Shown here: positions 25,487 through 58,603 of the stretch, piece after piece
How positions within the stretch are numbered: the stretch's first letter is position 1
Layout: every line of letters starts with the position of its first letter
Source of the DNA: Octopus vulgaris
Taxonomy: Eukaryota
Assembly (NCBI GenBank): GCA_951406725.2
Contig: OX597814.1
Coordinates: forward strand, 206,646,001-206,710,000
DNA: 64,000 nucleotides
Reading direction: 5' to 3'
The notes under the pieces: model-generated
What the model was told of the DNA's origin: nothing
Databases searched by the model: none
Seen by the model: only the letters and a program-made list of their open reading frames with translations
Translations under genes and position numbers: made by a program

Positions 25487-25714
25487 GTTGATGTCATCGT
25501 TAACAGCACAAATAAAAGCCTCCAGCTTAACAGTGGTGCTGTCTCCAAATCTATTCTCAATGCTGCTGGTCCACAGATACAAAATGAATGCAACGAGGAA
25601 TATTCTCGAGGTATTTCTACATCTGAAATTGCCGTCACTAAAGGATATAAGCTCAACTGTAAGAATGTATTTCATCTGGCATTACCTTACTGGGATGAAT
25701 ATTCCTCTGATTCA
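25487..25714 (+). CDS. Macrodomain module exon C, copy 2
   Basis: AG/GTAAGT intact. Reads VDVIVNSTNKSLQLNSGAVSKSILNAAGPQIQNECNEEYSRGISTSEIAVTKGYKLNCKNVFHLALPYWDEYSSDS. Confidence 0.93.
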
Positions 25715-26324
25715 GTAAGTATCAATCATATTATATTGATTTATTGAAACAGTTAATGTTTGAAGAGAACCTTATGCATGTTTTGTGAGAATCATAAAGC
25801 AAATGTCAGCATCCTGTTTAATATTTGTTCTTCCAAGTTATCATTGGAAGGAAGCAGAAGATATCGATGAACAGGACACTTTTATATATAAATAGAAGGA
25901 AAAAAGCCTCATGGCCTAACAACAGTTATGTGACTGATAAATAAGACTATATTAAAACATATTTCTGTGTTTTACTCTCTGTATTGGTGAGTTTTTCTCT
26001 GTCATGGCACGAGCACTAGAGAGGTTGTCATGTCCTCAACAACACTAAAGACTCCTCTTGGGTCTGCATTGTCTCTCTTCATTCACCAACCATTTTACAC
26101 GGTGGATTGGGTCTGTTTTATTGTAGCAGCATCATGAGTGAGGTTGCCTTGTCCCTTGCAGGACTAAAGAGTGATAGGAATGACAGATGTGTTTAGAAGT
26201 GGTAGGAGTGAGAGGAGTTGTGAGAGGAGGATATATCTATTACAACTTAAAGGTTTCTTCCTGTAATAAGAAAATAATTTAATAAAATGTTCATTATCAA
26301 TTACTAAACACTTATTTTTATTAG

Positions 26325-26552
26325 ATTCTGGCAAACTTGACTCGAATAATAACCACTTGTCTGGAAACTGCTGAGAGAATGGGAGCAAAAAGCCTGGCAT
26401 TTCCTATATTAGGGGCTGAAATGAAATACCCCATTGGAAAACTACCCAGAACAATGTCTGAAGCAGTGAAAAACTATTCAGATCAAAATTCAAGCCGGAT
26501 CAAAGATGTTTACTTTGCGGTTTTACCTGAAGAAGACAGAGAAATAGCAAAG
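26325..26552 (+). CDS. Macrodomain module exon D, copy 2
   Basis: AG/GTTGGT intact. Reads ILANLTRIITTCLETAERMGAKSLAFPILGAEMKYPIGKLPRTMSEAVKNYSDQNSSRIKDVYFAVLPEEDREIAK. Confidence 0.93.
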
Positions 26553-27110
26553 GTTGGTTGATGTTGATATTTTTGGAATTTACCAAAAGCATATTCTGCA
26601 AGAAATGAAGAAAATAGAAACAAGAATCTGGAATCATTTTATAAATTTCCCCGCATGACATCCATATGCCTTCTGTCCTGGCAAGCTTACTTGGTCTCAT
26701 CACCACTGTAGCACATTTTGAGAGTCCAAACTCCATCTTGATATCATTCACAAAAATCTGCACAGACTGGATTAAGCTGTCCAGTTCTGTCTCACTATTT
26801 GTTAACAATTTTGAGTCATTCCTGAATGCCTGCTGGTAAAGTTTTCGCTTACCTCTTCCCACATCAAACCCCAACTTTGTCTTCTGCTGTATTTCACTTA
26901 AGGGGTTTTATTCACAGTGAAAAAAAATCAGTGGAGACACACTGTTCCCCTGGAAGAGTCCTCTGTTGATATCCACCTCTGCCAGTACTTTTCATACTCT
27001 TCCATATAAAGCTTTTCATGTGTTTTGCTACTCCGTATATTTCTTTAGTTCTTGCTGTCCAAGATTATGTTATCAATCATTATTATTATTATTGTTGTTG
27101 TTGTAGTTGA

Positions 27111-28920
27111 TGTTGTGTGAGAGTAGAGTGCCCCCTGGCGAGAATGGACTGGGCCACTATATATAAAAAAGTATTAGTGGTCTGATTAAGTGTGGAAGTT
27201 CGGATTGGAGGGCAATTCATGCTAGTTCTACAGTTCATAAGTTGATAGTCAAAGCTGGAGTTGAAAGTTTACAGTTCGAGTTAGCATGTTGGTTTGTTGG
27301 TTGTTAAAGGATTGTTGTTATGTTCTGCGTGGATACTGCCAGTTTTTCATTACACTGTTGCAGTGTATTTGTTTATCCATGAGGATAAACATATCTGGCA
27401 ACAAGGATTGTTTGAAACTTCACAGGAAATAGCTTCAAGAGAAGCAACAGCAACAACCACAAGAGCTGCAAAAACAAATACTGCAACATCAACAATAATT
27501 GAGTTTTACAGTCAGTGAAGTCCGCAAGTCCAGTAAGATTGTTTATGCCAGATGGCACGGCTAACACAATTTCTAAATTTACGTATAATCCAGAGGAGAA
27601 TATTATGTCTCCCGTGTATTATAGAAGATATGAGGAAATTTTTAACAATGAGTGCAAGTCACGGTCGGAGGAGGAGTAAGGCTTTCACTACACAAGGTAG
27701 CTCCTGCCAAACATGAGCAGTACTGTAACTTTATTCTGCCCAGAAAGTTGAGTGGGATTGATTTCCAAGAAAGCGTGGAATTGTTTTCAAAATTTTGTTT
27801 GTAAAAGTTCATTGTTGAGCGCTTTAATGGAGTAGTCAGCCATACGTGTGAAAATTTCAAACTTCAGCATCTCACTCAGGATATGTTCAAATCACTTACC
27901 TTCATGTAAGGACTTATAGCACTTGAAGACATTCAGGCAAGGATTCTCTTGAAAATGGAGCAAGCAAACCAGGATTCATCTCTACAAACCCTCACTGAAG
28001 AACGTCAGACTATAGTAAATGATGTGAAAATAATGCCGGATAAAGACTCTGCAAAACTTCAAATGTGTTGCCCTGGAAAGCAGAATCCAAAAAAGTATCC
28101 GGCCCCAAACTGTGTTATGGTTATGGAGGCCTACACTACGAAAAGGATTGTCCATTTAAAAACAAAAAGTGCTATAGTTGTCATAAGCTGGGACACAGGA
28201 GTTCTCATTGCAGAACAAGACTGCAAGGCTCAAATACAAAAAGTTCTAAGGTGTTTTCAGCAGAGATCGATTGTGATGGAGAAACAAGAAAATTCGTGCA
28301 TGTAAAGATAAATGATGTGAATACCAAATTACAGTTAGACTCAGGTAGTGACATCTTCATTATAAATGCAGATACTTGGGAAAAATTGGTAAACCGAGAT
28401 TGCGCAAAACAGCAAAAATAGCATGTGGTGTAACGGGCGACAAATTACATTTGATGGACAAAACATGTATCAACATCACATTTCGAGGAGAGACACGTGA
28501 AGCAAAATTATTCGTCTGTTTGGTACAGATTGGCTAGAACTATTCAATTTATGGTACTTCCCCGTAAATCTTTACTGCAATAAAATAAATGGTTGTCACG
28601 TTAAAAACAAGTCTACAGAAGAACTGAAGGAAAAATTGGAAAAAAAATGTTCCTGCAAGTGTTATTTAAAAGAGTGTTAAGAGAAGCAGTAAATGAATCA
28701 AAATGTCATTAACTGCGGTTGACCGGTGTGTTTGTTCTTCCTGTTTTGTCATCCATTTTGTGGGGGAAGGGCAGCTCAACTGAATTTATTTTTCTGTCAA
28801 AAGTTGTTTGCATTTTCCCCGTCACCATTGGAGAAAGCCCAACAGAACATGGTGAGGCCTATATGTGAAAGAGGGGGAGAGATCGAGGCTCAAATACAAA
28901 ATGCTTTAGGTTCTGTCTAA
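27111..28920 (+). mobile_element. Ty3/Gypsy relic with the same internal deletion, U2
   Basis: ORF 28065-28421 has the knuckle and LDSGSD. Same junction agtgttatttaaaagag as U1. Confidence 0.82.
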
Positions 28921-30407
28921 TGACATACACATACATACATTCTTATATATTTATGATGATGATGATGATGATATTTCAGTAACAGCTTTTGAAAAAATAC
29001 AATAAAAGTAACGAGAACAGAATGCATCCTCTTCATCACCATCATCTCCATCACCACCACCACCACCACCACCACCCGTGTGCGATAGAATTTGTGGAGT
29101 TAGATATTCTATGGCTTGACGCCTTTCCTGTCACCAACCCTCACCTCGTTCCAAGGGAGGTAACTATTTCTGTATTTTACAAAACATCACAAACTATTAG
29201 AAACAAAGGACACTGCTTGCATAACAGGGACACTCGTTTACAGCTAACAAATAATGTAACGGCAAGGAGACACACACACATATGTGTGACAGGCTTATCT
29301 CATTTACTGCCTGTCAGACCCAATCACAGAGCTTTGATTGGCCTAAGGCTATAGTTAAAGACACTTGCTCAAGGTGCCATACATTGAGACCGAACCTAAA
29401 TCAAGGTAATTAAAAGTAATAGCATCAGAAGCAGTATTAATACCAAAAGCAATCTTTATATCCAACTAAATGTGGATGTTGTGTTAGAACACCAAATACT
29501 GCCTTATTTACCTTGAGAGGACCTCTCATATGGATGCACGGTCCATAAAGGCACTCATATTTATATTGTTGGTAGATGTCAGTCATCTGCTACAGGCACC
29601 AGAACTGCCAGATCATGTATTTTTGCTCTGCTCAGGTTCATCAGTGACAGACACCCTGTAGCAACATAACAGCCAAATCTCCCTGTCAACGATATATAGA
29701 CAGTGATGTCACAAATAGCCTGAAGGCTTATTAAAGATAATTAATAGCAACAGAAGCAGTGTTAATACCAAAAGGCATTCTTTATGTCCATATGCTGTAA
29801 TGAAGAAATAGGGGAAATTCCTGTCCACTGTAGAACTGTTTTTGAAGTTCTTTCTTTTCCTTTGTCATCTCTCTTATGAATGACCATGATCCTAATTGTT
29901 GGACCTCCTCCACCTCCTCCTTCTTGCTTATAATATCAAAAAATAATTACCTTGTACTCTGCTTTTGTTGCTCAAATATTCTTGGCTACACAAGATGCAC
30001 CAAAGAACCTCAACTTCAACATTCTTGATAGACATTTCAACAGCAAACACAAGACTCAGCAGTTTTAATCAGAATGGTGAGTGGAGAGAAGAAACAATAC
30101 AACTTCAGCTACATGAAGACACCATTGCCACATGTTTAACTTCACTAACACCACATCAGTGGTCAGTGTGGAAGGTTTTTCTGCCACATCCACTGCAATA
30201 CCTTGTCTCCCAGTAGACTGGAAGGTCGTGGATGGAATATCTTTGATCTGAGTGACAAAGTAATTTTCCTCATTTCCTTATTACTGATTAGAAAGAAATC
30301 ATTAAATATTTCAAATATTTTGTTTGTCTTTTGTTAAATTAAATCTCTTCTCTTTAAAAAAAGCAAAAATTAAACAAAAATGATTCTCATGGTTTTGAAT
30401 TTTGCAG

Positions 30408-30489
30408 AAATTTGAAGAATATCTCCAAAATAAAGACGAAAATGAAGGAATGATGGATAAACAGGAAAAGGAAAGATTTCATTCAAAAG
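30408..30489 (+). CDS. Macrodomain module exon E, copy 2
   Basis: ttttgcAG/GTAAAC. Reads KFEEYLQNKDENEGMMDKQEKERFHSK+G. Confidence 0.82.
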
Positions 30490-30574
30490 GTAAACAATTT
30501 GTTTGTTGATATTGAATATTATGGTGTTTTGCCATATCGTCTCTATTAAACACTGTTTATTATAAATATTATTA

Positions 30575-30583
30575 ATGTTATTA

Positions 30584-30646
<63 letters not shown>

Positions 30647-30706
30647 TCATTATTATTATTATTAATTATTAATTATTATCATTATTATTATTCTGATTAT
30701 TATTAC

Positions 30707-30735
<29 letters not shown>
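30575..30735. repeat. (TTA)n microsatellite (similar tracts ~14020-14105, 32031-32085, 47156-47328, 48807-48880)
   Basis: Direct reading. Confidence 0.95.
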
Positions 30736-30737
<2 letters not shown>

Positions 30738-32010
30738 TTTCTTTTCTTCTTTCAAATTTGCTTCCATTTCTTGCCGAGTGTCTTCCCGACTCTTAGGGCA
30801 AAGAAACTCATAGTATACATTGGTAGGCCATTAAACTAAACTCAATAGTTCGTTCATTTTTTTTTTTTTAAGTTAAATTAAATTACATGGGTCGTAATAA
30901 TTCTCACATCGACAATGCTCCTCTCAATACATGTGATGTACCAGTTAAGACAATCTTTTGCACTTCTTGCAGGGATGGTACGCCAGGGATCATTCTCATA
31001 TAATTTTCGGTTCCCTTCTTGATCATTCCTAGTGCTCCTACGATCACTGGTATTGTAACCGCCTTGAGATCCCACATTTTCTCAATTTCAATGAGTAGGT
31101 CTTTATATTTTCTGAGCTTATCAAACTCATTCGCTGAGATATTATGATCACAGGGGATGCTCATGTCGATCAATAAGCAAACTTTATTGTTTTGGACTTT
31201 CACAACAATATCTGGTTTATTAGCCTTGATGGTTCGGTCTGTATGTAGTGGAAAGTCCCACAGAATGGTTACATTTTCTCCTTCAGTTACAGCCTCAGGG
31301 TGGTGATTATACCATTTGTTGGCAGTTTTGATATTGTAATGCTGACTTATTAGCCAGTGTAGATATTGGCCAACTCTGTCATGTCTTAATTTATACTCCA
31401 CTGGTGCTAAGACTTTACATCCAGAGATTAGGTGGTCCACTGTTTCAATCATGTCGTTGCAGAATCGGCATTTTGGGTCTGCTTCATTTTTATCACATTG
31501 GCCTGGTAGTTCCGGGTTAATAGGCTTTGATCTTGAGCAGCCAGGATGAAACCTTCGCTCTCTGCTTTTAGCCCTGAGCTCCGTAGCCACTGATGGGTTT
31601 GCTTCTGGTCAACATCAGCTTGTTTGCTGCGGGCCACATATTTGCCGTGCAGAGGTTTCTCCTCCCACCTCTCAGCCAATTGCTCGTGTGCTTTTTTCGT
31701 TGCCATTATTTTCACCTTCTTTGCAACAATAGTTGCCGTACTTCCCTCAGGTTGTTCAGTTTGGGTATCCTGCACGAGATCAATAGCAAATTTTTTGCTT
31801 TCCTTTATGATAGAATGAAGCTTCTTTCGTCTCTCGTGATTTTCCACGAGCTTTAGCATCCAGCCATTCGTTATTTCAATATATTTGGCCAGTCCAATTG
31901 TGGTTGTTTTGTAAGCTAGTTCAAATTGGATCAGGCCTCGACCTCCTTGGGCTCTGGGAAGGTAAAGGCGATCTACGTCTGCCTTTGGGAGGTGCATCCT
32001 ATTACAACTC
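30736..32010 (-). mobile_element. RLE-type non-LTR retrotransposon 3' fragment (R4/Dong-like), family 1, U2
   Basis: CRFCNDMIETVDHLISGC knuckle, RHD, ILWDF..TDR....KPDIVV..LIDMSIP..K..KY restriction-like endonuclease. 3' end abuts (TAA)n on the minus strand. One frameshift. Confidence 0.88.
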
Positions 32011-32029
32011 AGCAGTTTGCGTATTTTCC

Positions 32030-32070
<41 letters not shown>

Positions 32071-34749: not shown

Positions 34750-35200
34750 TAATGTCTATGAGAGAAAAATGCCACATACATGGCTACGCATATTATGATT
34801 GCCGAAGGAAAGTAATCTTTACTTCAATGGTAGCAGAAGGTGAAGTCTGTGCCTTGCCAAAAAGAGAACTTATATTTAAGAACTCTCTCCACCCAGATGC
34901 TTAATTAAACCCAAATTCCACTTTGCTGGGAGTTATTCCTCACTCAGAGATTTTGGACAAGTGGCATGACCAATGATGGAATCCTCCTCTCTAATTGTCT
35001 CTTGCAATTAGAGATGTGGCACTTGCTGTCAGAAACCCATTGCCCTACTTCCATACTGGCCACTCTGAGGAGCACAGTGTTAGATGATATCCTGTGCAAA
35101 ACTGATTTGTAAGAATGGCTGAAATGGATTTATAATACTGTATAGTTTTGCTGGTAAATTACCTACTCTATTAACAAATGTACGAATGCCTGTTTTCCTA
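34750..35200 (+). mobile_element. Old Penelope-like 3' end with decayed hammerhead, U3-specific segment
   Basis: YFNGSRR*SLCLAKK at ~34820 resembles a PLE GIY-YIG C-terminal C.LC..EK motif. It is followed by CTGAGGA-gcacag..ctgtgc-AAAAC..GTA at 35065-35111. Confidence 0.5.
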
Positions 35201-37202
35201 GTTGATGGTGTCTTACACTTATTTCTATATCATCATCATCATTATTTAATGTCCATCAGTTTGACAAGATCTGGTGATCTCTAGATCTGTGTTAGGTTCC
35301 ACACTCAGCTGGCTGGCTGAGTGCTGCTGGCTGGCTGAGTGCAGATGGCTGGCTGAGTGTGGATGGCTGGCTGTCCTTCATAATGCTAACCGTTTTACAG
35401 TGTGGACTGGAAGCTGCTTTTCTCATGGCACCAGCACTGGTGAGGTCACCAAGAAACTTGCAACCCCCCCGATGGAACTGGTGGGTGGGGAGGTTGCTTG
35501 ATGCCAGGGCTAGAAAGTCTAAAGTTTGCCAGAGGGTTAAGCACATAGATATAGAGGAGACTCGTGGCGTCCTTATATTTATGCAAAGGGGCATGACAGT
35601 ATCTGGAAGGAAGAAAGATGGTGGTAATAGGGTGCCAGAGCATAGTCCCAAGTTAGAAGAAGGGGAGTATAAGGGAGACTGTGGATGAGGAAAGAAGGAA
35701 TGGGAGGGTAATGGCATCAGAGTGTGAGATGAGAATGGCAGAGGTTAGAGATGGGGCTTGAGGTGGATGTAGGGAGTGAGGAACAATGGTTTGAGGTGGA
35801 GTTGATAGACTGACGGGGCTCGGTAAGGAGGAGGTGACAAGAAGCAGCATAGGAAGGGTGGAGAGCAGCAGAACCATCAATCTGTTGATAGATGAGGAGG
35901 AAGGGAGATGATGACCAGGATCTGACAGCAGAGGGAAAGCAAAGATGATGAACTGTGAAAGAGATGGGAGTCAGAGATACATGGGGGTGGCTGTAGTGAG
36001 TGGGGCCAGAAAACTGGAGGGAGTATTAGCAATGGCTGTGAGAGGGTGTTGAGAATGATTGCAGATAGGAGAAGTGTTCAACAGGAAACCTGGCAGAGTA
36101 AGGTGTAGCTAAGAGGGGTGGGTGGGAAAGATTAGGGAAGGGACAGAAAGGGATGATCGATGGAAGGTTGTATGGATGGAGATGATGATGAAAGAGATGC
36201 AACTGGTATTAATGAAAGGGTGGGGGTGGTGATGAATGCTCTCAAATGGTTACAGCAGTAAAGTAGGACCATAGTTAGAAGAGTATAATAGAGGGCTGGG
36301 TGTTAGGAAGATGAGATGTGGTGAAGGGGATGCTTCACAGGGACAGATATGGGCGTAGGGTCCAGCATGGACAGGAATATATATCACAGTTTTTGGACAT
36401 GACTTTTGCTGTGACAAATGTGTCTTTATATATCATTTTGTTCAACTTATGCCAGCATGGACATGAAATGTAGATGGGGATAATGCTGATGATGGCATGT
36501 CTATACGTATGTACATCATGATCATCATCATTTAACATCCATTGTCCATGCTGGCATGGGTTGGACGGTTTGACTGGGGCTGGCAAGGTGAGGGGCTACA
36601 CCAGACTCCAGTCTGACATGGTATGATTTCTACAGCTGGATACCTTTCCTAACCACCAATGTAATGGCTGCTTTTATTTACCACCAGCATGGATGCTAGA
36701 TACATGATGCCAGCATCAACCACATGGCCTCTATGAGGCACAACCCCCAAATGGTACTTTTTACGTGAGACTGGCATGGCTGGCAGGTAGGTGACACCTA
36801 CAAAGACCATAGCTATGATTTCATTTGGCTTGATATGTCTTCTCAAGTATGACATATCGCCAAATGTCTCGGTCACTATAGTCATTGCTTCCATGTGGCC
36901 CATCATTTGATGATTATGCTTAAGCACCTCATTCCATGTCTTCCTGGGCCTCCCTCTTCTACAGCTTCCTCCCACTGGTAGAGATTGGAACTTCTTCAGA
37001 TGTCGTGTGCGGTTGTCTCTCTTGTACACCACATCTGATGGTTCTTATGCCCAGCTAAGATATATATATATATATATGAATTATCAATATAACATATATC
37101 AGAATGAGAAGCACAACCTAAAGAATAGAGCAGACTTTATGATTGAAAATGTGTATGTTTGTGTGTGTGTATGTATGTATGTTTATATTTGTTAATTTTC
37201 AG

Positions 37203-39521: not shown

Positions 39522-39561
39522 ATAAAGTGTACATATGTTGATATTTGTTTATTTTTTTCAG

Positions 39562-39698
39562 ACACCACATCATCAAACACATCTCTTCATGTTTCGCAAA
39601 AGGAAATCTCTTCTGTGGCACCCAGAACTAATGAGACACCCAGAGAAAATGATGGCATCAAAATACAACTATTGATTGATTCAATTTCTAATGCAACT
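39562..39698 (+). CDS. Macrodomain module exon B, copy 3
   Basis: AG/GTGAGT intact. Reads (D)TTSSNTSLHVSQKEISSVAPRTNETPRENDGIKIQLLIDSISNAT. Confidence 0.85.
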
Positions 39699-39979: not shown

Positions 39980-40207
39980 GTTGATGTCATCATTAACAGA
40001 ACCAATAAAAACCTCTACCTTAACATTGGTGCTATCTCCAAATCTATTCTCAATGCTGCTGGTCCACAGATACAATATGAATGTAACCAGAAATATCCTC
40101 GAGCTATTTCTACATCTACAATAGCCATTACTAAAGGATATAACCTCAACTGTAAGAATGTATTTCATCTGGTATTACCTTACTGGAATGTATATTCTTC
40201 TGATTCA
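39980..40207 (+). CDS. Macrodomain module exon C, copy 3
   Basis: AG/GTAAGT intact. Reads VDVIINRTNKNLYLNIGAISKSILNAAGPQIQYECNQKYPRAISTSTIAITKGYNLNCKNVFHLVLPYWNVYSSDS. Confidence 0.93.
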
Positions 40208-40817: not shown

Positions 40818-41045
40818 ATTCTGGCAAACTTGACCCGAATAATAACCACTTGTCTGGAAACTGCTGAGAGAATGGGAGCAAAAAGCCTGGCATTTCCTAT
40901 ATTAGGGGCTGAAATGAAATACCCCATTGGAAAACTACCCAGAACAATGTATGAAGCAGTGAAAAACTACTCAGATCAAAATTCAAGCCAGATCAAAGAT
41001 GTTTACTTTGTGGTTTTACCTGAAGAAGACAGAGAAATAGCAAAG
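40818..41045 (+). CDS. Macrodomain module exon D, copy 3
   Basis: AG/GTTGGT intact. Reads ILANLTRIITTCLETAERMGAKSLAFPILGAEMKYPIGKLPRTMYEAVKNYSDQNSSQIKDVYFVVLPEEDREIAK. Confidence 0.93.
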
Positions 41046-44600: not shown

Positions 44601-45478
44601 TGATGAGTATATTACAGAAATGAAAGAAGCTTTAAAAAATGAACGGAACAAAAATTCAGATGTCAGTAGTTTTTCAATCTGCAACGATATTCTGATGTAT
44701 TCCCAAAGACTGGTGGTTCCACCTTCATTACAAAAAAAAAAGGTGTGTTGCAACAATTTCATAGCGGACATCCCGGAATGGCAAGGATGAAGGGTCTGAT
44801 GTGGAGTTATATCTATTGATCATGTATGGACTGAGATATCGAAAACTTGTTGAAAACATAGGGAGGTTGTGCACTCGAAGCCAAAGCCCCACTGGTAAAA
44901 TATCACTTGTGACCAGAAATGGTGGAGCCATGGTGTAGGCTACACATTGACTATGATGGACTGGTAAATGGCGCTTACTACCTCATCATGGCAGATAGCT
45001 GTACTAAGTGGCCAGAGGTTTGCAGGTGCTATAGACAAACCTCTAAGACAATTATAAGGTTTTTATACAAATTGTTTGTATGATATGGTAACCATGACAT
45101 GCTAGTTTCTGATATTGGGATGCAGTTCTCTGGGTACAAATTCAAGAACTTCTGTAAAAGAGATGAGATAAAGCATATTTTCACTCCACCCTACTACCTG
45201 AGGTCAAGCGGGCAGGTAGAACGCTTTGTGGACACCTTTAAAAGAGTGTTAAGGAAAGCAGGGAATGAATCAAAATGTCATTAACTGTGGTAGACCGGTG
45301 TGTTTATTCTTCCTGTTTTGGGGTGGGGGACAGCTCAAATGAATTTATTTTTCTGTCAAAAGTTGTTTGCATTTTCCCCGTCACCATTGGAGAAAGCCGA
45401 ACAGAACATGGTGAGGCCTATATGTGAAAGAGGGGGAGAGATCGAGGCTCAAATACAAAATGCTTTAGGTTCTGTCTA
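41625..45478 (+). mobile_element. Ty3/Gypsy relic (gag-PR-RT-RH-INT, frameshifted; probably Mag/K02A2.6-like clade), U3
   Basis: Motifs CCHC, LDSGS, CVDFS..HPFPTAEDIFSKLNG..KLDLSEAYLQ, LPFGLKVAPAIFQQIMD, YxDD decayed to YSVN, integrase VSDIGMQF..TPPYY..SSGQVERFVDTFKR. No 3' LTR seen. Confidence 0.9.
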
Positions 45479-46988: not shown

Positions 46989-47070
46989 AAATTTGAAGAA
47001 TATCTCCAAAATAAAGACGAAAATGAAGGAATGATGGATAAACAGGAAAAGGAAAGATTTCATTCAAAAG
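46989..47070 (+). CDS. Macrodomain module exon E, copy 3
   Basis: ttttacAG/GTAAAC. Reads KFEEYLQNKDENEGMMDKQEKERFHSK+G. Confidence 0.82.
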
Positions 47071-47328: not shown

Positions 47329-48257
47329 CCTTTCTTTTCTTCTTTCAAATTTGCTTCCATTTCTTGCCGAGTGTCTTCCCGACTCTTAGGGCAAAGAAAC
47401 TCATAGTATACATTGGTAGGCCATTAAACTAAACTCAATAGTTCGTTCATTTTTTTTTTTTTTTAAGTTAAATTAAATTACATGGGTCGTAATAATTCTC
47501 ACATCGACAATGCTCTTCTCAATACATGTGATGTACCAGTTAAGACAATCTTTTGCACTTCTTGCAGGGATGGTACGCCAGGGATCATTCTCATATAATT
47601 TTCGGTTCCCTTCTTGATCATTCCTAGTGCTCCTACGATCACTGGTATTGTAACCGCCTTGAGATGCCACATTTTCTCAATTTCAATGAGTAGGTCTTTA
47701 TATTTACTGAGCTTGTCAAACTCTTTCGCTGAGATATTATGATCACAGGGGATGCTCATGTCGATCAATAAGCAAACTTTATTGTTTTGGTCTTTCACAA
47801 CAATATCTGGTTTATTGGCCTTGATGGTTCGGTCTGTATGTACTGGAAAGTCCCACAGAATCGTTACATTTTCTCCTTCAGTTACAGCCTCAGGGTGGTG
47901 ATTATACCACTTGTCGGCAGTTTTGATATTGTAATGCCGACTTATTAGCCAGTGTAGATATTGGCCAACTCTGTCATGTCTTAATTTATACTCCACTGGT
48001 GCTAAGACTTTACATCCAGAGATTAGGTGGTCCACTGTTTCAATCATGTCGTTGCAGAATCGGCATTTTGGGTCTGCTCCATTTTTCATCACATTGGCCT
48101 GGTAGTTCCGGGTTAATAGGCTTTGATCTTGAGCAGCCAGGATGAAACCTTCGCTCTCTGCTTTTAGCCCTGAGCTCCGTAGCCACTGATGGATTTGCTT
48201 CTGGTCAACATCAGCTTGTTTGCTGCGGGCCACGTATTTGCCGTGCAGAGGTTTCTC
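47329..48257 (-). mobile_element. R4/Dong-like family 1 fragment, U3 (shorter, open 244-aa frame)
   Basis: ORF 47499-48233 with CCHC, RHD and PD-D/E-K motifs. Confidence 0.88.
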
Positions 48258-48342
48258 TGCATATTATGGTGTTTTGTCATACCGTCTCTATTAAACACTG
48301 TTTATTATAAATATGATTAATGTTAATATCATTATTATCATT

Positions 48343-48806: not shown

Positions 48807-48832
48807 TTATTATTAATTATTAATGATTAATG

Positions 48833-48870
<38 letters not shown>

Positions 48871-50705
48871 TATTATTATGATTGCTATTATTGTTATAGA
48901 TGTGGCACAGTATACAATATCGTGAGATTGTTGATCGAAGATATTGTGTCTACTCGGGGTTTGCAGTGTTTGTCAAGTCACAAGAAGGACCTCAGGCAGA
49001 CAATACTTTACACAATTCCAAGTAATGCTGACTTTTGCAATACATCTAGATTGCGGAGTATCTCTAAGGACTTCAGATGTTTTTTCAGTTTGGATCGTAT
49101 TGAACCCAAAACTCCGATGACAATAGGGATAACCTTTATGTTTGACTCTTGTACCTGCCACATCTTAGCAATCTCAATTCTCAGGTTTCCATATTTATCA
49201 ACCTTTTTCTCTTTATTTCATGATGATGTGTTGATCTCCTGGCCCTGCCAAATCGATTATTTGGCACTTTTGTTTGTCCCTTCTAAAGGTTTCTATATCT
49301 GGCCTTCAGTTCTCTAACACTTTGTCTGTCTGGAAATCAAAGTCCCAGAGGATTTTTGCCTTCCCCTTTTCGTTCATTACTTTTTTGGTGTATGTTGGTA
49401 CCAAGCACCCATAACCTCATATCCATACTTATGGCATAGTAGCCAGTGGAGGTTTTCGGCTACTTTGTCGTGTCTACGCTTGAACTCTTCCTGCGCAAGA
49501 CTTTCTCAAGCACTACTTTCGGCCCTCTTCCCACACATTCTGCAGAGATCCGTTGCACTTGTGTGGTATATATTCTTTTCCACTGAGTCCTGGGCCCAAA
49601 TGATTAGGCTTTCAGTATTTTTCATTAGGTCACCCTTGTTGAGCCATTCTATGATGCTTCTTTGTCTTTTAATTTGTTGGTTCCAGTGGAACTGTAATTC
49701 CATACGGAGTAGGGTTTCTTCTCTCCGTCGGCTGTTCGTGATCAGAATTCATGTTTACCCTCAAGTTCCTGTGCTATCAGAATAGAAGCAGTTGTAGTAT
49801 TTGTAGTATTAGCAGCTGCAGTATCCTATCATTATTTTTCTTTTTATCATTGTCACCATCACCACCACTACAACTCTGCATGTTTCTAGTAATCCCCTAT
49901 GTCAGTACAAATCTGATTTATCCTCAACTATTGAGATTTCGGATTTGATCAAATTTAGCATAACAGTCACAGAAATGCAAGAATTTAATTAAACAATCTG
50001 GCAATCCCAAGCAAAATTACGTCATTTTAGTTTTCCCACATGTGTAGCCTTTAGGGGCCATTCTGGTAATTGTTTGGGCTAAAATACAAGGGTGGGGAAC
50101 GAGAATTGTTCATCCATTGAAAAGAAGAGCTGGTCCCCCAGAAGAGAGATCAGCCAAGTCTCAAAAGCAACAACAACATCAACAATAGTGCATGTGAGGC
50201 CTAGGAAAACGATTTTGCCTTGCTTCTGTCATCCCATTTCACCATCACAGGAACAAAAGAAATTAATGAGAAAAAGTGACAACAACAGCGAGAAAACAGC
50301 TGCCATGCTGGTGGCAGCTGCAGCAGGTTTGCCAGTACCACTGCCAACATCATCATCATCATCGTTTAACATCTGTTTTCTAAGCATGCATGGATTGGAC
50401 AGTTGACAGGAGCCGGCAAGGTGGAAAATAACTACCCTTCGCTACTGTGTCTGTTTTGGCAGGAATTTTACAGCTGGATGCACTTCCTAACACCAACCAC
50501 TCAGCAGAGTGGACTCAGTACATTTTACGTGGAACTAGCACAACAAAGTTAGTTTTGGCATTATTTTTGCAGCTAGATGCCCTTCCAAATGCAAGCCATT
50601 TCACAATGTGCAGTGGATGCTTTTTACATGGCACCAGTGCTGGCAGGGTCACCAAGATAATGAATTATGAGAGGGGCAAGGCATTTGATGAGGAGAGCTT
50701 GTGTC

Positions 50706-53638
50706 AGATGATGAAAGGTTAGAGTGTGACAGAGAGACAGAAAGAGGGGTCTTGCCATAGCAGAGAGGGCATTGGAGGAGGTGATCCAGTAGTAGATGAT
50801 GAAATGTTAGAGTGTGACAGAGAGACAGAAAGAGGGGTCTTGCCATAACAGAGAGGGCATTGGAGGTGGTGATCCAGTAGTAGATGATGAAAGGTTAGAG
50901 TGTGACAGAGAGACAGAAAGAGGGGTCTTGCCATAACAGAGAGGGCATTGGAGGAGGTGATCCAGTAGTAGATGATGAAAGGTTAGAGTGTGACAGAGAG
51001 ACAGAAAGAGGGGTCTTGCCATAGCAGAGAGGGCATTGGAGGAGGTGATCCAGTAGTAGATGATGAAATGTTAGAGTGTGACAGCGAGACAGAAAGAGGG
51101 GTCTTGCCATAACAGAGAGGGCATTGGAGGAGGTGATCCAGTAGTAAATGATGAAATGTTAGAGTGTGACAGAGAGACAGAAAGAGGGGTCTTGCCATAA
51201 CAGAGAGGGCATTGGAGGTGGTGATCTAGTAGTAGATGATGAAAGGTTAGAGTGTGACAGAGAGACAGAAAGAGGGGTCTTGCCATAACAGAGAGGGCAT
51301 TGGAGGAGGTGATCCAGTAGTAGATGATGAAATGTTAGAGTGTGACAGAGAGGCAGAAAGAGGGGTCTTGCCATAACAGAGAGGGCATTAGAGGTGGTGA
51401 TCCAGTAGTAGATGATGAAATGTTAGAGTGTGACAGAGAGACAGAAAGAGGGGTCTTGCCATAACAGAGAGGGCATTGGAGGAGGTGATCCAGTAGTAGA
51501 TGATGAAATGTTAGAGTGTGACAGAGAGACAGAAAGAGGGGTCTTGCCATAACAGAGAGGGCATTGGAGGTGGTGATCCAGTAGTAGATGATGAAAGGTT
51601 AGAGTGTGACAGAGAGACAGAAAGAGGGGTCTTGCCATAACAGAGAGGGCATTGGAGGAGGTGATCCAGTAGTAGATGATGAAATGTTAGAGTGTGACAG
51701 AGAGACAGAAAGAGGGGTCTTGCCATAACAGAGAGGGCATTGGAGGTGGTGATCCAGTAGTAGATGATGAAATGTTAGAGTGTGACAGAAAGACAGAAAG
51801 AGGGGTCTTGCCATAACAGAGAGGGCATAGGAGGTGGTGATCCAGTAGTAGATGATGAAAGGTTAGAGTGTGACAGAGAAACAGAAAGAGGGGTCTTGCC
51901 ATAGCAGAGAGGGCATTGGAGGAGGTGATCCAGTAGTAGATGATGAAATGTTAGAGTGTGACAGAGAGACAGAAAGAGGGGTCTTGCCATAACAGAGAGG
52001 GCATTGGAGGTGGTGATCCAGTAGTAGATGATGAAAGGTTAGAGTGTGACAGAGAGACAGAAAGAGGGGTCTTGCCATAACAGAGAGGGCATTGGAGGAG
52101 GTGATCCAGTAGTAGATGATGAAATGTTAGAGTGTGACAGAGAGGCAGAAAGAGGGGTCTTGCCATAACAGAGAGGGCATAGGAGGTGGTGATCCAGTAG
52201 TAGATGATGAAATGTTAGAGTGTGACAGAGAGACAGAAAGAGGGGTCTTGCATAACAGAGAGGGCATTGGAGGAGGTGATCCAGTAGTAGATGATGAAAT
52301 GTTAGAGTGTGACAGAGAGACAGAAAGAGGGGTCTTGCCATAACAGAGAGGGCATTGGAGGTGGTGATCCAGTAGTAGATGATGAAAGGTTAGAGTGTGA
52401 CAGAGAGACAGAAAGAGGGGTCTTGCCATAACAGAGAGGGCATTGGAGGAGGTGATCCAGTAGTAGATGATGAAATGTTAGAGTGTGACAGAGAGACAGA
52501 AAGAGGGGTCTTGCCATAACAGAGAGGGCATTGGAGGTGGTGATCCAGTAGTAGATGATGAAATGTTAGAGTGTGACAGAAAGACAGAAAGAGGGGTCTT
52601 GCCATAACAGAGAGGGCATAGGAGGTGGTGATCCAGTAGTAGATGATGAAAGGTTAGAGTGTGACAGAGAAACAGAAAGAGGGGTCTTGCCATAGCAGAG
52701 AGGGCATTGGAGGAGGTGATCCAGTAGTAGATGATGAAATGTTAGAGTGTGACAGAGAGACAGAAAGAGGGGTCTTGCCATAACAGAGAGGGCATTGGAG
52801 GTGGTGATCCAGTAGTAGATGATGAAAGGTTAGAGTGTGACAGAGAGACAGAAAGAGGGGTCTTGCCATAACAGAGAGGGCATTGGAGGTGGTGATCTAG
52901 TAGTAGATGATGAAATGTTAGAGTGTGACAGAGAGACAGAAAGAGGGGTCTTGCCATAACAGAGAGGGCATTGGAGGAGGTGATCTAGTAGTAGATGATG
53001 AAATGTTAGAGTGTGACAGAGAGACAGAAAGAGGGGTCTTGCCATAACAGAGAGGGCATTGGAGGTGGTGATCTAGTAGTAGATGATGAAAGGTTAGAGT
53101 GTGACAGAGAGACAGAAAGAGGGGTCTTTCCATAACAGAGAGGGCATTGGAGGAGGTGATCCAGTAGTAGATGATGAAATGTTAGAGTGTGACAGAGAGG
53201 CAGAAAGAGGGGTCTTGCCATAACAGAGAGGGCATTGGAGGAGGTGATCCAGTAGTAGATGATGAAATGTTAGAGTGTGACAGAGAGACAGAAAGAGGGA
53301 TCTTGCCATAACAGAGAGGGCATTGGAGGAGGTGATCCAGTAGCAGATGATGAAATGTTAGAGTGTGACAGAGAGACAGAAAGAGGGGTCTTGCCATAAC
53401 AGAGAGGGCATTGGAGGTGGTGATCCAGTAGTAGATGATGAAATGTTAGAGTGTGACAGAGAGACATAAAGAGGGGTCTTGCCATAACAGAGAGGGCATT
53501 GGAGGTGGTGATCCAGTAGTAGATGATGAAATGTTAGAGTGTGACAGAGAGACAGAAAGAGGGGTCTTGCCATAGCAGAGAGGGCATTGGAGGAGGTGAT
53601 CCAGTAGTAGATGATGAAATGTTAGAGTGTGACGGAGA
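50706..53638. repeat. 88-bp intronic satellite array, ~33 copies
   Basis: Same monomer. Confidence 0.97.
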
Positions 53639-56055
53639 AATAAAGAAGCAGAGAGAGATGTCTTGCTATAGAGGAGAGACATGGTTACCGAGGGACAGAG
53701 AAAGAGGTACGCAAAAGAGGCCATAAATTGGTGTGCTGGTGTGAAGGAGGTATTTGGTTACCTAGGCAGAGGAAAAACAAGAGGAGAGAGAGAGAGAGAA
53801 AATGAGGAAGAATGAGACATGCAAATCTAGTCGTAACAATTTCAACTTTGCAAGAGTAACCACAGAATTAAGTGAAGACATTTTTTATCGATGGAAATTT
53901 ATTCAAGAATGCAAAATGTAGCAGAAAAATGGTATTAAACATTCATAGAACTGGCCCCGCAAAAAATTAATTTGTGGACAGTTCTATATAAAACAACTGA
54001 AGTCAAAAGTAGGGAAGTGGAGCAGGCAACACAGCAGCAAATAGAGAAATACCTAGAAGCAGTTTAGAAAAGCAAAGCCTACGTAGCCAGGTTAAAGAAA
54101 GAAATATGGGACTGTCAAAGTGCGTTCTGTCTCAGAGGAGGAGACCAAAAATAACTGGATGGCCATCCTAGCAAGGGACAAACACATTGTCATCCCCATC
54201 TACTTTGGTCGAAGAATATTCAGAGTTAGAATACTCAACATAATGCCAACCATTTTAGAGTGTGGACTGGAAGCTGCTTTTCTCATGGCACCAGCACTGG
54301 TGAGGTTACCAAGTATCTTGCAAGCCCCCTGATGGAACTGGGGAGTGGGGAGGTGGCTTGAGGCCAGGGCTAGAAAGTCTAAAGTTTGCCAGAGGCTTAA
54401 GCACATAGATCTAGAGGAGACTCGTGGCGTCCTTATATTTATGCAAAGGTGCATGACAGTATCTGGAAGGAAGAAAGATGGTGGTAATAGAGTGCCAGGG
54501 CATAGTCCCAAATTACAAGAAGGGGAGTATAAGGGAGACTGTGGATGAGTAAAGAAGGAATGGGAGGGTAATGGCATCAGAGTGTGAGATGAAAAGTGCA
54601 GAGGTTAGAGATGGGGCTTGAGGTGGTTGTAGAGAGTGAGAAACAATGGTTTGAGGTGGAGTCGCGAGACTGACGGGGCTCGGAAAGGAGGAGGTGACAA
54701 GAAGCCTCAGAGGAAGGGTAGAGAGCAGCAGAATCATCAATCTGTTGATAGATGAGGAGGAAGAGAGATGAAGACCAGGATCTGACAGCAGAGGGAAAGC
54801 AAAGATGATGAAGTGTGAAAGAGATAGGAGTCAGAGATACATGGGGGTGGCTATAGTGAGTGGGGCCAGAAAATTGGAGGGAGTATTAGCAATGACTGTG
54901 AGAGGGTGTTGAGAATGATTGCAGATAGGAGAAGTGTTCAACAGGAAACCTGGCAGAGTAAGGTGTAGCTAAGAGGGGTGGGTGGGAAAGATTTGGGAAG
55001 GGACAGAAAGGGATGATCGATGGAAGGTTGTATGGATGGAGATGATGATGAAAGAGATGCAACTGGTATTAATGAAAGGGTGGGGGTGGTGATGAATGCT
55101 CTCAAATGGTTACAGCAGTAAAGTAGGACCATAGTTAGAAGAGTATAATAGAGGGATGGGTGTTAGGAAGATGAGATGTGGTGAAGGGGATGCTTCACAG
55201 GGGCAAATGTGGGCGTAAGGCCCCGCATGGACAGGAATATATATCACAGTTTTTGGACATGACTTTTGCTGTGACAAATGTGTCTTTATATATCATTTTG
55301 TTCAACTTGTGCCAGCATGGACATGAAATGTAGATGGGGATAATGCTGATGATGGCATGCCTATACGTATGTACATCATGATCATCATCATTTAGCATCC
55401 ATTGTCCATGCTGGCATGGGTTGGACGGTTTGACTGGGGCTGGCAAGGTGAGGGGCTACACCATCTCCAGTCTGACATGGTATGGTTTCTACAGCTGGAT
55501 ACCTTTCCTAACCACCAATGTAATGGCTGCTTTTATTTACCACCAGCATGGATGCTAGATACATGATGCCAGCATCAACCACATGGCCTCTATGAGGCAC
55601 AACCCCCAAATGGTACATTTTACGTGAGACTGGCATGGCTGGCAGGTAGGTGACACCTACAAAGACCACAGCTATGATTTCATTCGGCTTGATATGTCTT
55701 CTCAAGTATGACATATCGCCAAATGTCTCGGTCACTATAGTCATTGCTTCCATGTGGCCCATCATTTGATGATTATGCTTAAGCACCTCATTCCATATCT
55801 TCCTGGGCCTCCCTCTTCTACAGCTTCCTCCCACTGGTAGAGATTGGAACTTCTTCAGATGTCGTGTGCGGTTGTCTCTCTTGTACACCACATCTGATGG
55901 TTCTTATGCCCAGCTAAGATATATATATATAAATTGTCAATATAACATATATCAGAATGAGAAGCACACCCTAAAGAATAGAGCAGACTTTATGATTGAA
56001 AATGTGTATGTTTGTGTGTGTGTATGTATGTATGTTTATATTTGTTTATTTTCAG

Positions 56056-56168
56056 GAACCAAACCATCAGACCTTCTTAGTCCACAACAGGAATCGTCCT
56101 CTATGACACCCGGAACTAAAGTGACATCCAGAAAATATGATGGCATCAAAATAAAACTAATGATTTAG
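56056..56168 (+). pseudogene. Exon A, copy 4
   Basis: Same acceptor, frame and TAG as copy 1. Confidence 0.7.
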
Positions 56169-56246
56169 TCAATTTGGCCTATGTGCACCCCAGACTGGTA
56201 AAGCGTTAAGTGTATGGTTGGCTGGTTTTTGAAGTTACTGTTGCTC

Positions 56247-56311
<65 letters not shown>

Positions 56312-56312
<1 letters not shown>

Positions 56313-57758
56313 TGTTGTGTCTGGGGAGAGTCATTTTCTTTTTGTGCCTTATAATTTTACACACTCACCGGTGAAATATCCGCTTAATGTAGAAACTGAG
56401 AAGAACATAATGGAGAGCCTCCAGCAAATAGCTAACTCCATCCACCAAAGTATCAAGGTAACTATAGATTAACCCCCACTAAGCACCCCAACAATGGACT
56501 CCTTGTACTTGATACTGAACTTGGGTTAGAGACTGTGAACAAAAGAGTGCAGCTCCTCCACTCTTATTACATGGAACCCATAACTTCAAACTATGTCGTT
56601 CACAAGAACTCACCTTTCTCACACAACATGGAAATTAAACCATACTGATAGCAGACTTAATTAGAATAATGAACAATGTGTCCCCACTATGCGAACCCTA
56701 TGAAACGACAAAACATATACAGAACTTCATGCACCGCATGCAGTTCTCTGGATATGATCAAAAAGATAGGGTTCGAGTATACAGGGGTGCTAGAAATAAA
56801 TCTGATAACATTATACGTAATGATACCAGTGGTACCTGCCCTAGATATAGAAACAAAGAATGGAATAGGATACAAAGAACTTGTGACAAAGCAAACAGGG
56901 TGAACACATGGTATAAAAGTGAGAAATATCAAGGAGTGATGTTTGTAGAGGCCAAATCCCATGGAGAACTAGCCTGTAGATTTAGGGAAGCTCTGAAGGA
57001 GACCAAACTTGACATTAAGATTGTTGAAAAGCCAGGGAACTCCGTCAGATCATAACTATGTAGGACGTACCCCTTTAAGAATACCATATGCACCAATGAT
57101 AACTGCTTGATATGTAGGATTAGCCCTGGCATTAACTGTAGAACTCGAAATGTAGTTTACAGCATATGATGCTTAGAAAGTGCTTGTAAAGACATGAACA
57201 TGACGTACGTAGGGGAGACATCTAGGAGCATAGCTGAAAGACTAAATGAACATTTGAGACTATATGACAACAAAAAGCAGTCCTCCATACTCTACCAACA
57301 TCCCAATGACCGCCATAGAGGTAACTTGGGTCAACTTGACATCCGCATCTCATCCAAGATATCAAAAGACCCAACACTCAGACAAATACGGGAGTACGTC
57401 CTTATAAATGAAACTTTCCTAATACTAAATAGGAAATATACATGGTAGATACCATACCCCCATACCCACAGTTTACACAGGTAGAGTAGAATAGTTAGTG
57501 GGCTGTTATGTAGATAGATGTATGTATGTGTGTGTGGGTACACACACACATGCATGCATAGACACACACACACACTGACCCACACACATGCGCACAAACA
57601 AACAAAAAATAATGGACAGAGTCAACACTTTTGAAAATTTTGCAAGATGCAATGAAAATTTGAACAAAATAAAAAGGAGAAATAAGTGGAAATTTTTGGC
57701 AGTGAGTGTGTTAAATTATAAGGCACGAAAAGAAAATGACTCTCCCCAGACACAACAG
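56312..57758 (+). mobile_element. Degenerate Penelope-like element, U4 copy (CA-rich tail shortened)
   Basis: Homologous ORFs 56669-57055 and 57194-57448. Confidence 0.85.
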
Positions 57759-57880
57759 AATATGCTTCAACACACAAACTCACATAAAGAATCTTGCAAA
57801 CCAAATCCAAAAATGAAATACATATACGGACGTTAAATGATGATGATGATGATGATGATATATATCTTTGTGAGTGTGTG

Positions 57881-57920
<40 letters not shown>

Positions 57921-57957
57921 AAGTGTACATATGTTGATATTTGTTTATTTTTTTCAG

Positions 57958-58094
57958 ACACCACATCATCAAACACATCTCTTCCTGGCTCGCAAAAGGA
58001 AACCTCTTCTGTGGCACCCAGACCTAATGAGACACCCAGAGAAAATGATGGCATCAAAATACAACTATTGATTGATTCAATTTCTAATGCATCT
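57958..58094 (+). CDS. Macrodomain module exon B, copy 4
   Basis: AG/GTGAGT intact. Protein identical to copy 1. Confidence 0.85.
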
Positions 58095-58375
58095 GTGAGT
58101 AAATAGATTCACTTAACATATTTACGTTTAATTGTTATTTCATTTCCAAATGAGGAATCATTAAAGTTAATTAAAACATTTTCTCAATCGAACTCAAACA
58201 TTTTATTTCCTTCACATCTGATATCTTGAGTATATCTTTTGCTAACTTTAACAACCTCAAACTTACTACAGCCATTCTGTAGAGCCTTTCTTAACAACAA
58301 TATCAACTTCAACAATGTATCTCTTTTCTCTCCATGGAATGTTCCTTTGCTGTTTACCATTAATTACTTTTGTAG

Positions 58376-58603
58376 GTTGATGTCATCGTTAACAGCACCA
58401 ATAAAAACCTCCAGCTTAACAATGGTTCTATCTCCAAATCTATTCTCAATGCTGCAGGTCCACATATACAAAATGAATGTAACGAGGAATATCCTCGAGG
58501 TATTTCTACATCTACAATAGCCATTACTAAAGGATATAACCTCAAATGTAAGAATGTATTTCATCTGGTATTACCTTCCTGGTATGAATATTCCTCTGAT
58601 TCA
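58376..58603 (+). CDS. Macrodomain module exon C, copy 4
   Basis: AG/GTAAGT intact. Reads VDVIVNSTNKNLQLNNGSISKSILNAAGPHIQNECNEEYPRGISTSTIAITKGYNLKCKNVFHLVLPSWYEYSSDS. Confidence 0.93.

Follow-up and report, generated by a model that had tools for sequence, protein, structure and literature searches.

Sequence exchange among the tandem macrodomain modules of an Octopus PARP14-like gene, and divergence of one exon

The stretch of Octopus vulgaris DNA analyzed here (64,000 nucleotides of contig OX597814.1, hereafter the window) carries four tandem modules, of 14.5-18.4 kb each, of an Octopus PARP14-like gene, and each module encodes one macrodomain in exons B, C, D and E. We consider it likely that these modules are intragenic tandem duplicates in which exchange between modules homogenizes the sequence, while selection keeps and remixes the variants of exon C.

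Results

Organization of the modules and identity of the gene

The 15 exons of the window (Table 1) are all open and have canonical splice ends, and the four copies of exon C are 228 nt long (76 codons) with ag/gt ends. Modules differ from each other by ~2.4% and by kb-scale insertions that are discordantly distributed among them, and their introns are transposon-laden. Exon 'A' was ruled out as a coding exon by an in-frame TAG in all four copies. In two runs, whose RNA nature was guessed and is probable, the depth reaches thousands in exons vs ~10 in introns, and contig ends join E-B, B-C, C-D and D-E; transcripts of the family are spliced as predicted, and the contigs do not resolve which module is expressed.

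Table 1. Features of the four modules; positions are those of the window, and exon B starts are given in codon frame, the true acceptor being 1 base later.
Feature	Position	Strand	Remarks
Exon B, module 1	8078..8215	+	Linker and first macrodomain strand; identical to module 4 exon B
Exon C1	8498..8725	+	Macrodomain core; PF01661 E=2.7e-13
Exon D1	9336..9563	+	Macrodomain C-terminal half, with loop 2
Exon E1	13455..13536	+	Last helix and linker
Exon B, module 2	25068..25205	+	
Exon C2	25487..25714	+	3 aa from O. sinensis repeat 2; derived E37-E38 and K55
Exon D2	26325..26552	+	
Exon E2	30408..30489	+	
Exon B, module 3	39561..39698	+	
Exon C3	39980..40207	+	
C3/C4 common tract, C3 side	40118..40144	+	ACA ATA GCC ATT .. 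AAC
Exon D3	40818..41045	+	
Exon E3	46989..47070	+	
Exon B, module 4	57957..58094	+	
Exon C4	58376..58603	+	Mosaic copy of the initial annotation
C4 block in common with C2	58472..58500	+	Imperfect: N33, E37, E38
C4 tract in common with C3	58514..58540	+	5 informative sites, 2 silent; maximum extent 58501-58545
Exon D4	59215..59442	+	
Module 2 = module 4	22214..22953		With 55485-56221; longest identity tract; 25 consecutive polymorphic sites; intronic; pairwise p=0.0002
Module 1 = module 4	7802..8213		With 57670-58092; 15 consecutive polymorphic sites; spans exon B; p=0.0004
Module 1 = module 3	2501..2686		With 35781-35966; 15 consecutive polymorphic sites; intronic; p=0.0016
Module 1 = module 2	9682..10157		With 26648-27126; 13 consecutive polymorphic sites; intronic; p=0.005

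Pfam Macro (PF01661) was matched on the four copies of exon C; 40 of the 41 protein matches are macro-PARP or macrodomain proteins (37 of these named Octopus), and the top PDB sequence matches are PARP14. The model of repeat 4 from O. sinensis (pLDDT 82.7) has human PARP14 macro 2 as its top Foldseek match, with a TM of 0.85-0.87. The macrodomain of each module is of the PARP14 macro-2 type and probably an ADP-ribose reader, a role that is predicted because its loop 2 does not carry the hydrophobic-aromatic pair named in PMC10221186. No PARP catalytic domain is present within the window, and none of the 198 tblastn HSPs falls outside the exons listed. The PARP domain (PF00644) was found in the closest protein, P0001, which begins MD1-like and carries five near-identical repeats; five repeats are also present in P0002. 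In vertebrate macro-PARPs the ancestral layout consists of three different macrodomains, according to PMC4038475, PMC10221186 and PMC13224862. Judged on P0001, this layout (MD1, MD2, MD3) is absent from the octopus protein, and its MD1-like start followed by near-identical repeats points to a derived PARP14-like architecture rather than to a one-to-one PARP14. The retrieved proteins contain 53 distinct exon C segments.

The modules exchange sequence along their whole length

The 80 informative sites of the whole module fall into 25 runs in 6.9 kb (p≈1e-5), and the 68 non-coding informative sites alone likewise give p≈1e-5. The counts of non-coding sites in favor of the three possible splits were 39/15/14; none of 500 one-tree simulations attained these counts, the maxima being 8 for the second split and 5 for the third. 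Identical runs at p<0.01 were observed in four of the six module pairs, and the clearest tracts, of 180-740 bp, are located in introns and in exons B and D. Around many patches the former background resumes on either side within 30-300 bp, in a B-A-B pattern in exon C and B-C-B in introns. Sequence exchange between modules is strongly supported. The initial annotation had inferred short-tract conversion inside exon C; exchange between modules stands, but it is not specific to this exon and conversion is not separable from repeated unequal crossing-over, so that this reading is only partly supported.

The patchwork of exon C

The patchwork described for exon C is real, although it is partly confirmed in its details and is not confined to this exon. 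All the exon C letters quoted in the initial annotation were found in the sequence. In the block ascribed to C2 and C4, AAT (codon 33), GAG GAA (codons 37-38) and GGT (codon 42) are common to both copies, but codons 35 and 40 are different in C2, and G42, though shared, is the ancestral state, present in all 48 segments from other genes. The adjacent block of C3 and C4, ACA ATA GCC ATT ... AAC (codons 47-55), is common to both copies with its silent changes; this tract of 27-45 bp includes T47 along with silent changes at codons 48 and 50. NKNL is uninformative as further evidence for this pair, given that C1 and C2 each differ privately there. The QK of C1 and C3 is present and is merely the reverse side of the EE of C2 and C4, and the same holds for GAA ATT..AAG of C1 and C2 with regard to ACA ATA..AAC of C3 and C4; since these are opposite sides of the same sites, the patterns amount to two conflicting splits and not four. 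With A denoting the split 12|34 and B the split 13|24, the string of informative sites is BBAAAAAB. The derived states are in conflict: in the 48 segments from other genes, E37 occurs in none and E38 in one (C2 and C4), T47 in five (C3 and C4), and K55 in one (C1 and C2).

When exon C of the four window copies is tested alone, the outcome of the GENECONV- and PHI-type tests that had been proposed is not significant, an outcome which the initial annotation had itself named as refuting its reading. The runs test gave p=0.14 (0.40 once adjacent sites were collapsed), the PHI-like test p=0.09 (50 nt) and 1.0 (100 nt), and the C3/C4 run of 6 polymorphic sites a GENECONV-like p=0.63. In the one-tree simulation with rate variation, P(>=3 sites in the second split) was 0.04 for exon C, and 0.001 when clustering was added, a criterion that is post hoc. 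The proposal that no single tree fits over <100 bp is hence marginal on four copies, but it gains support from the five repeats of O. sinensis, with which the protein PHI test of exon C reached p=0.0002-0.014 at four window sizes. Family-wide, PHI was significant only at short range (p=0.003-0.01 for 3-5 residues, 0.04-0.21 for 8-12); all cross-gene tests are at protein level. With these independent repeats added, reassortment within exon C is supported.

Exon C compared with the O. sinensis counterpart

The sequences compared from O. sinensis come from predicted gene models, and the comparison was made at protein level. For the four copies of exon C the nearest match is found in O. sinensis (3-10 aa) and not in another copy of the window (13-14 aa); exon B shows the reverse in the four cases, exon E in three of three, and exon D is mixed. 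The same exon C blocks are found in the O. sinensis gene model in other combinations; for instance, DECNQKFRRS and ELQLNCGAIS recur intact with other flanks. The flanks of C3 match O. sinensis repeat 4 (one difference outside codons 26-45), while the middle differs at 5 residues, and this repeat carries the same EE+T junction as C4 with C3-type flanks; C3 may consequently be the recipient, and C4 need not be recombinant. The order of the modules apparently differs, given that a C1-like middle block follows a C2-like repeat in O. sinensis and precedes it here.

Exon C is an island of divergence

The introns and exons B, D and E differ by ~2-4% between modules. In contrast, exon C forms a peak of divergence of about fourfold, chiefly at sites that alter an amino acid; the initial annotation had not remarked on this peak. 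It has 38 variable sites in 228, vs 277/6328 in the non-coding sequence (p=7e-12) and 10/227 in exon D (p=2e-5), and the highest other segment of 228 columns has 24. Divergence is slightly higher in the 100 bp that precede exon C (10/91, a value reached by three of 70 non-coding windows); in the flanking introns a divergence shoulder is weak upstream and absent downstream. The 35 non-synonymous changes of exon C in 177 sites exceed the non-coding rate (p=7e-14). Within the exon, dN is higher than dS (35/177 vs 6/51) with p=0.13, pairwise dN/dS is 0.86-3.2, and dS is itself raised relative to the non-coding sequence (p=0.023); since the excess of dN over dS is not significant and dS is raised, selection is inferred from the intron baseline and not from dN/dS. 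Enrichment of the variable residues of exon C in loops was not significant (14/36 vs 10/40, p=0.15).

The sites that are variable in the window tend to vary also in the family's other genes (Spearman 0.43, p=1e-4), and 42 of the 55 residues at variable sites are present in these genes. The remaining 13 are absent from them, and 9 of these are common to the O. sinensis counterpart, so that a large part of the variation originated in the array itself.

Discussion

The modules trade patches along their whole length, which keeps the introns and exons B, D and E at ~2-4% without a single tree. In the preferred reading, this exchange would consist of non-allelic gene conversion with some unequal crossing-over; selection would purge those exchanges that erase the differences of exon C, and tolerate or favor short exchanges within it that yield new combinations, and the outcome would be a series of reader domains whose surfaces differ. 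Speculatively, the selective agent could be a pathogen, by analogy with the macro-PARPs of vertebrates.

Other processes could leave comparable patterns. Repeated unequal crossing-over without conversion, with gain and loss of modules and breakpoints anywhere, including exon C, could generate all the mosaics, and it would account for the seemingly different order of modules in O. sinensis and for the discordant kb-scale insertions; nevertheless, the 25 runs in 6.9 kb and the reversion of patches on both sides would demand two nearby crossovers for each patch, so that we regard it as improbable. Somewhat less probable still is that exchange acted only elsewhere and that the patchwork of exon C reflects parallel mutation, after recent duplication, at a few hypervariable and positively selected codons. 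The weak tests on exon C alone agree with it, as do the family-wide variability of the same sites and the occurrence of most of their residues in other genes, and T47 could recur because position 47 is hypervariable, the change from E to K to T being two steps via a common state. Against it, the silent changes at codons 48 and 50 accompany T47 in C3 and C4, multi-residue blocks recur in O. sinensis with other flanks, and the nine-repeat PHI is significant. One of these silent changes, the T at 58525 common to C3 and C4, is rare in four of four runs, where C makes up 87-99% of the depth. Neutral recurrence, to which the simulation was limited, has p≈0.04 or lower. Parallel mutation, named in the initial annotation as a route by which the conversion reading could fail, looks weak because silent sites travel with the block.

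It is very unlikely that the divergence of exon C stems from patches imported from distant macro-PARP genes of the cluster rather than from preserved old differences. The mean distance of exon C among the window copies (0.195) is close to the family-wide value (0.22), whereas that of exon D is 0.05 vs 0.24 (the latter inflated by mis-modelled ends); S18, K57 and S68 of C4 and E10 of C1 match other genes, and silent sites and the upstream 100 bp are slightly more divergent. The array-limited residues shared with O. sinensis speak against this origin, which is compatible with the preferred reading and may add to it. An assembly artefact, in which consensus polishing mixed reads among collapsed repeats, is the least credible of these alternatives. 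In its favor, the letters private to C4 at 58456 and 58465 are missing from four runs or rare there, and no exact contig across exon C4 was found among the contigs listed (whose sequences lack phase across the EE-T junction). Yet the independent O. sinensis model contains the EE+T junction as well as the middle block of C1, the sequence of C2 and the flanks of C3, which argues against polishing error, and the modules are ~2.4% apart, with kb insertions, and all 15 exons are open with canonical splice ends.

The exchange process as such is already known in opsins, MHC and R genes, and the mutational process is textbook. The closest family is that of the vertebrate macro-PARPs PARP9/PARP14/PARP15 (Daugherty et al. 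2014, PMC4038475; PMC10221186; PMC13224862). The octopus gene resembles them in combining macrodomains with a PARP domain (as seen in the counterpart from O. sinensis), in its best fold match, PARP14 macro 2, in fast amino-acid change in the macrodomains, and in gene duplication and turnover; unlike them, it contains at least four repeats of one macro-2-like domain, in recent modules of exons and introns between which sequence is exchanged. The term 'gene conversion' does not occur in the main text of PMC4038475, and we found no report of macro-PARP repeat arrays in octopus or molluscs, or of conversion among macrodomains, in a search of main texts, mostly of papers outside subscription journals.

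The human red/green opsins undergo gene conversion, and their exon 5 is a peak of divergence (Fawcett and Innan 2011, PMC3924837). As in these opsins, the octopus introns have low divergence with a peak in one exon, in which orthologous copies are closer than neighbouring paralogues, a pattern known in octopus at protein level; in contrast with the two opsin genes, at least four domains lie inside one gene, the peak exon is remixed rather than fixed, and the octopus domains are not known to differ in function. MHC, self-incompatibility, immunoglobulin and plant R genes (tomato Cf-4/9) show haplotype diversity generated by conversion, as reviewed in PMC3924837. The likeness to these genes, within that review, is that paralogues of a putative immune family reassort variable residues in short patches; the octopus product differs in being a predicted intracellular ADP-ribose reader, not a surface or LRR receptor, in an intragenic array, and for exon C there is no evidence of a somatic mechanism or pseudogene donors.

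In PRDM9, a zinc-finger array of intragenic tandem domains is homogenised except for a few specificity positions, its unit being a short minisatellite within one exon. The octopus domains are likewise homogenised outside a few positions, but their unit is 14.5-18.4 kb with four exons.

Fast evolution of macro-PARPs is known in mammals, where it is interpreted as an arms race with viruses, and the octopus locus suggests that in a mollusc lineage amplification of domains and exchange of patches come on top of it. For this family, trees and dN/dS cannot be relied on without taking recombination into account. The array also offers natural, nearly identical domains whose only differences lie in one segment of 76 residues, so that the target specificity of non-catalytic macro-2 readers becomes directly testable. 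A more tentative and rather doubtful proposal is that the macro-2 readers form a combinatorial recognition repertoire, with dozens of copies and at most five per protein, remixed by short conversion tracts at a few putative specificity positions (11, 16, 33, 47 and 68). If so, the ADP-ribosylated or viral targets that are read would differ from one individual to the next, and the family would act as a diversified intracellular sensor of the MHC/NLR kind, based on ADP-ribose signalling.

Gene identity and module structure

Self-comparison of the window resolved four tandem modules, ~95-97% identical, with exon C to exon C spacings of 17.0, 14.5 and 18.4 kb. Translated exon C matched Pfam Macro in all four copies (C1-C4), and with C4 as query against longer proteins 41 of 60 candidates matched: 37 named PARP14/15-like or macrodomain proteins of Octopus sinensis or O. 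vulgaris; of the other four, two carried no name, one was from a gastropod and one from a bacterium. The top match, P0001 (O. sinensis XP_029633854.1, the counterpart gene), was used in tblastn on the window to define exons B, C, D and E of each module; all 15 exon copies have open frames, canonical splice ends and compatible phases. Since 0 of 198 HSPs lay beyond these exons and exon 'A', and no PARP-domain or macro-1 exon was found in the window, the simplest reading is that the modules are internal repeats of one gene. The AlphaFold model of P0001 repeat 4 (pLDDT 82.7) has human PARP14 macro 2 as best match; the remaining four models have pLDDT 44-58. Contigs of the family from two runs that are probably RNA reach depths in the thousands in exons vs ~10 in introns, and contig ends join E-B, B-C, C-D and D-E, which shows that this splicing holds for the family as a whole.

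Macro-PARPs are numerous in Octopus: one search yielded 39 protein clusters with 53 distinct exon C segments (P0001-P0040), many of which, within a species, share its longest contig. Entire modules, or in some cases one exon D, are skipped in the O. sinensis isoform models P0001 and P0003-P0006, which points to alternative splicing at module level or to reads mis-mapped between repeats. The shortened loop 2 of exon D may alter ADP-ribose binding, and exon 'A' (acceptor intact, TAG in frame, donor missing at exon B's position) is a pseudo-exon or a possible poison/terminal exon. The 88-bp minisatellite arrays differ in copy number between modules, with none before module 3. As the 2-kb pol-like segment occurs in modules 3 and 4 alone, large indels too disagree on the module tree. 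Profile support for the retrotransposon fragments and the Penelope/GIY-YIG-like stretch was one weak zf-RVT match (Pfam).

Features of the modules and tracts of identity between them
Feature	Position	Strand	Remarks
Exons D1-D4	9336, 26325, 40818, 59215		loop 2 GA-EMKY, one residue shorter than GAGxLKY of most family members
Exon 'A'	3909, 22788, 37203, 56056 (~120 bp each)	+	degenerate exon B copy, ~75% identical; all four modules
88-bp minisatellite arrays	122-1500, 15860-20400, 50680-53640		G-skewed; E-B intron, modules 1, 2, 4
2-kb segment, broken retrotransposon pol-like frames	43183-45237, 61585-63647		modules 3 and 4, not 1 and 2; presumably Gypsy-like
532-bp tandem triplication	4186-5864		near-perfect (99.8%); module 1 only
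Non-LTR retrotransposon fragments, open frames	30904-31608, 47499-48263	-	after exon E of modules 2 and 3; we take these to be non-LTR, with a restriction-like endonuclease motif
Penelope/GIY-YIG-like stretch	6335-7144 and its copies	+	every module; presumed assignment
Tract, modules 2=4			740 bp
Tract, modules 1=4			410 bp, all of exon B included
Tract, modules 1=3			185 bp
Tract, modules 1=2			475 bp

Conflicting splits in exon C and along the module

The letters quoted in the initial annotation are all present in the exon C copies, and the four conflicting patterns it had claimed come down to two splits, the biallelic informative sites reading BBAAAAAB in order (B, copies 1,3 vs 2,4; A, 1,2 vs 3,4). 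NKNL, taken as a C3/C4 block, is uninformative; the C2/C4 block is present but has two mismatches, and its G42 is ancestral, occurring in 48/48 segments from other genes, the outgroup that set polarity (n=48). Derived states, numbered by codon, are E37-E38 in C2 and C4 (E37 in 0/48, E38 in 1/48 other-gene segments), T47 in C3 and C4 (5/48) and K55 in C1 and C2 (1/48); the silent T at 58525, present in both C3 and C4, is the rarer letter in 4/4 runs. The conflict is therefore between derived characters, silent sites included.

Statistical testing (SIGNIFICANCE) of the proposed incompatibility with a single tree was weak for the four copies of exon C alone and unambiguous for the whole module. 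Exon C gave p=0.14 for runs, PHI-like p values of 0.09 (50 nt) and 1.0 (100 nt), and GENECONV-like p=0.63 for the C3/C4 run; of 3,000 simulations with rate variation on the best single tree, ~4% had a second split of 3 or more sites and 0.1% the joint clustered pattern, a statistic picked after viewing the data. In the module alignment (6,920 columns left after removal of gapped columns, those within 5 of a gap and one microsatellite edge), 80 informative sites fell in 25 runs (p≈1e-5), with the same result for the 68 non-coding sites on their own (p≈1e-5); the latter support the three splits 39, 15 and 14 times, against maxima of 8 and 5 for the second and third in 500 one-tree simulations. 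Exchange along the modules is thus patchy, and the strongest identity tracts lie outside exon C (pairwise p=0.0002-0.005, uncorrected across 6 pairs).

Exon C blocks in the O. sinensis repeats

The five repeats of P0001, S1-S5, carry the same blocks as the window's exon C, otherwise combined. C2 is 3 residues from S2; the C1 middle, DECNQKFRRS, is identical to that of S3, but over its opening 25 residues C1 differs from S5 at 1; the C3 flanks differ from S4 by 1 residue in total and its middle at 5. A PHI-type test on nine proteins (C1-C4, S1-S5) was significant at 4/4 window sizes (p=0.014, 0.0014, 0.0002, 0.0006), and the family-wide signal (75 segments of 39 proteins, 57 distinct; macro-1-type, truncated, gastropod and bacterial segments excluded) holds at 3-5 residues and fades further out, these being predicted proteins and correlated neighbouring residues being able to mimic such a signal. 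Together with the recombined blocks, the nine-protein test supports reassortment inside exon C, for which the four window copies alone were weak. C4 codons 33-55 may be one block common with S4, with C3 the recipient; because the EE+T junction of C4 also occurs in S4, the direction of transfer is not readable from the window.

Exon C as a divergence island

Exon C is a divergence island, absent from the initial annotation, with 38/228 variable columns (non-coding 277/6,328; exon B 7/137; exon D 10/227). Its minimum changes are 35 non-synonymous and 6 synonymous; the non-synonymous rate is far above the non-coding rate (p=7e-14) and did not differ significantly from exon C's own synonymous rate (p=0.13). 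The latter is also elevated (p=0.023), as would follow if the variants predate their flanks. At the protein level every C copy is 3-10 residues from an O. sinensis repeat vs 13-14 from any neighbour; in exons B and E neighbours are nearer, and exon D is mixed. Sites variable in the window are those variable in the family (rho=0.43), with entropy highest at 11, 16 and 33. By alignment to PARP14, positions 10-19 would cover loop 1 as the available text of PMC10221186 defines it; overall, enrichment of variable exon C residues in loops was not significant.

Discussion

The patchwork is real, and blocks have been reassorted between the two versions of the gene, in the window and in O. sinensis. 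We think it probable that exchange homogenises the modules while selection preserves and remixes exon C: non-allelic conversion, with some unequal crossing-over, would homogenise the modules, and selection would keep exon C differences and retain new combinations. The short-tract conversion proposed initially agrees in part with the patchy exchange and reassortment, conversion itself being our inference.

That crossing-over only makes the mosaics is unlikely; some unequal crossing-over forms part of the favoured account, and the modules alternate among splits in 25 runs. Parallel mutation, to which the weak tests on exon C alone would leave room, is less probable still, silent sites being part of the conflict. 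Import from distant paralogues is improbable. Least credible is an artefact: the polishing errors among repeats raised as an alternative are unlikely because the same blocks occur in the independent repeats of P0001.

In the available text of PMC10221186 the ancestral PARP14 layout has three distinct macrodomains, whereas the Octopus gene is an array of one macro-2-like domain. Intragenic exchange of patches within such an array had no earlier report in the literature searched, which covered few subscription papers and no supplements. Patchworks driven by conversion, with islands under selection, are familiar from opsins, MHC and R genes, and the Octopus array would be of this kind; red/green opsin exon 5 shows the same peak pattern as Octopus exon C (PMC3924837, available text). 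The parts available of PMC13224862 state that reader targets of PARP14 MD2/MD3 are not established, and those of PMC4038475 describe recurrent positive selection on the macrodomains of primate PARP9/14/15; by analogy with the latter, and speculatively, pathogen pressure might be the agent behind selection on exon C.
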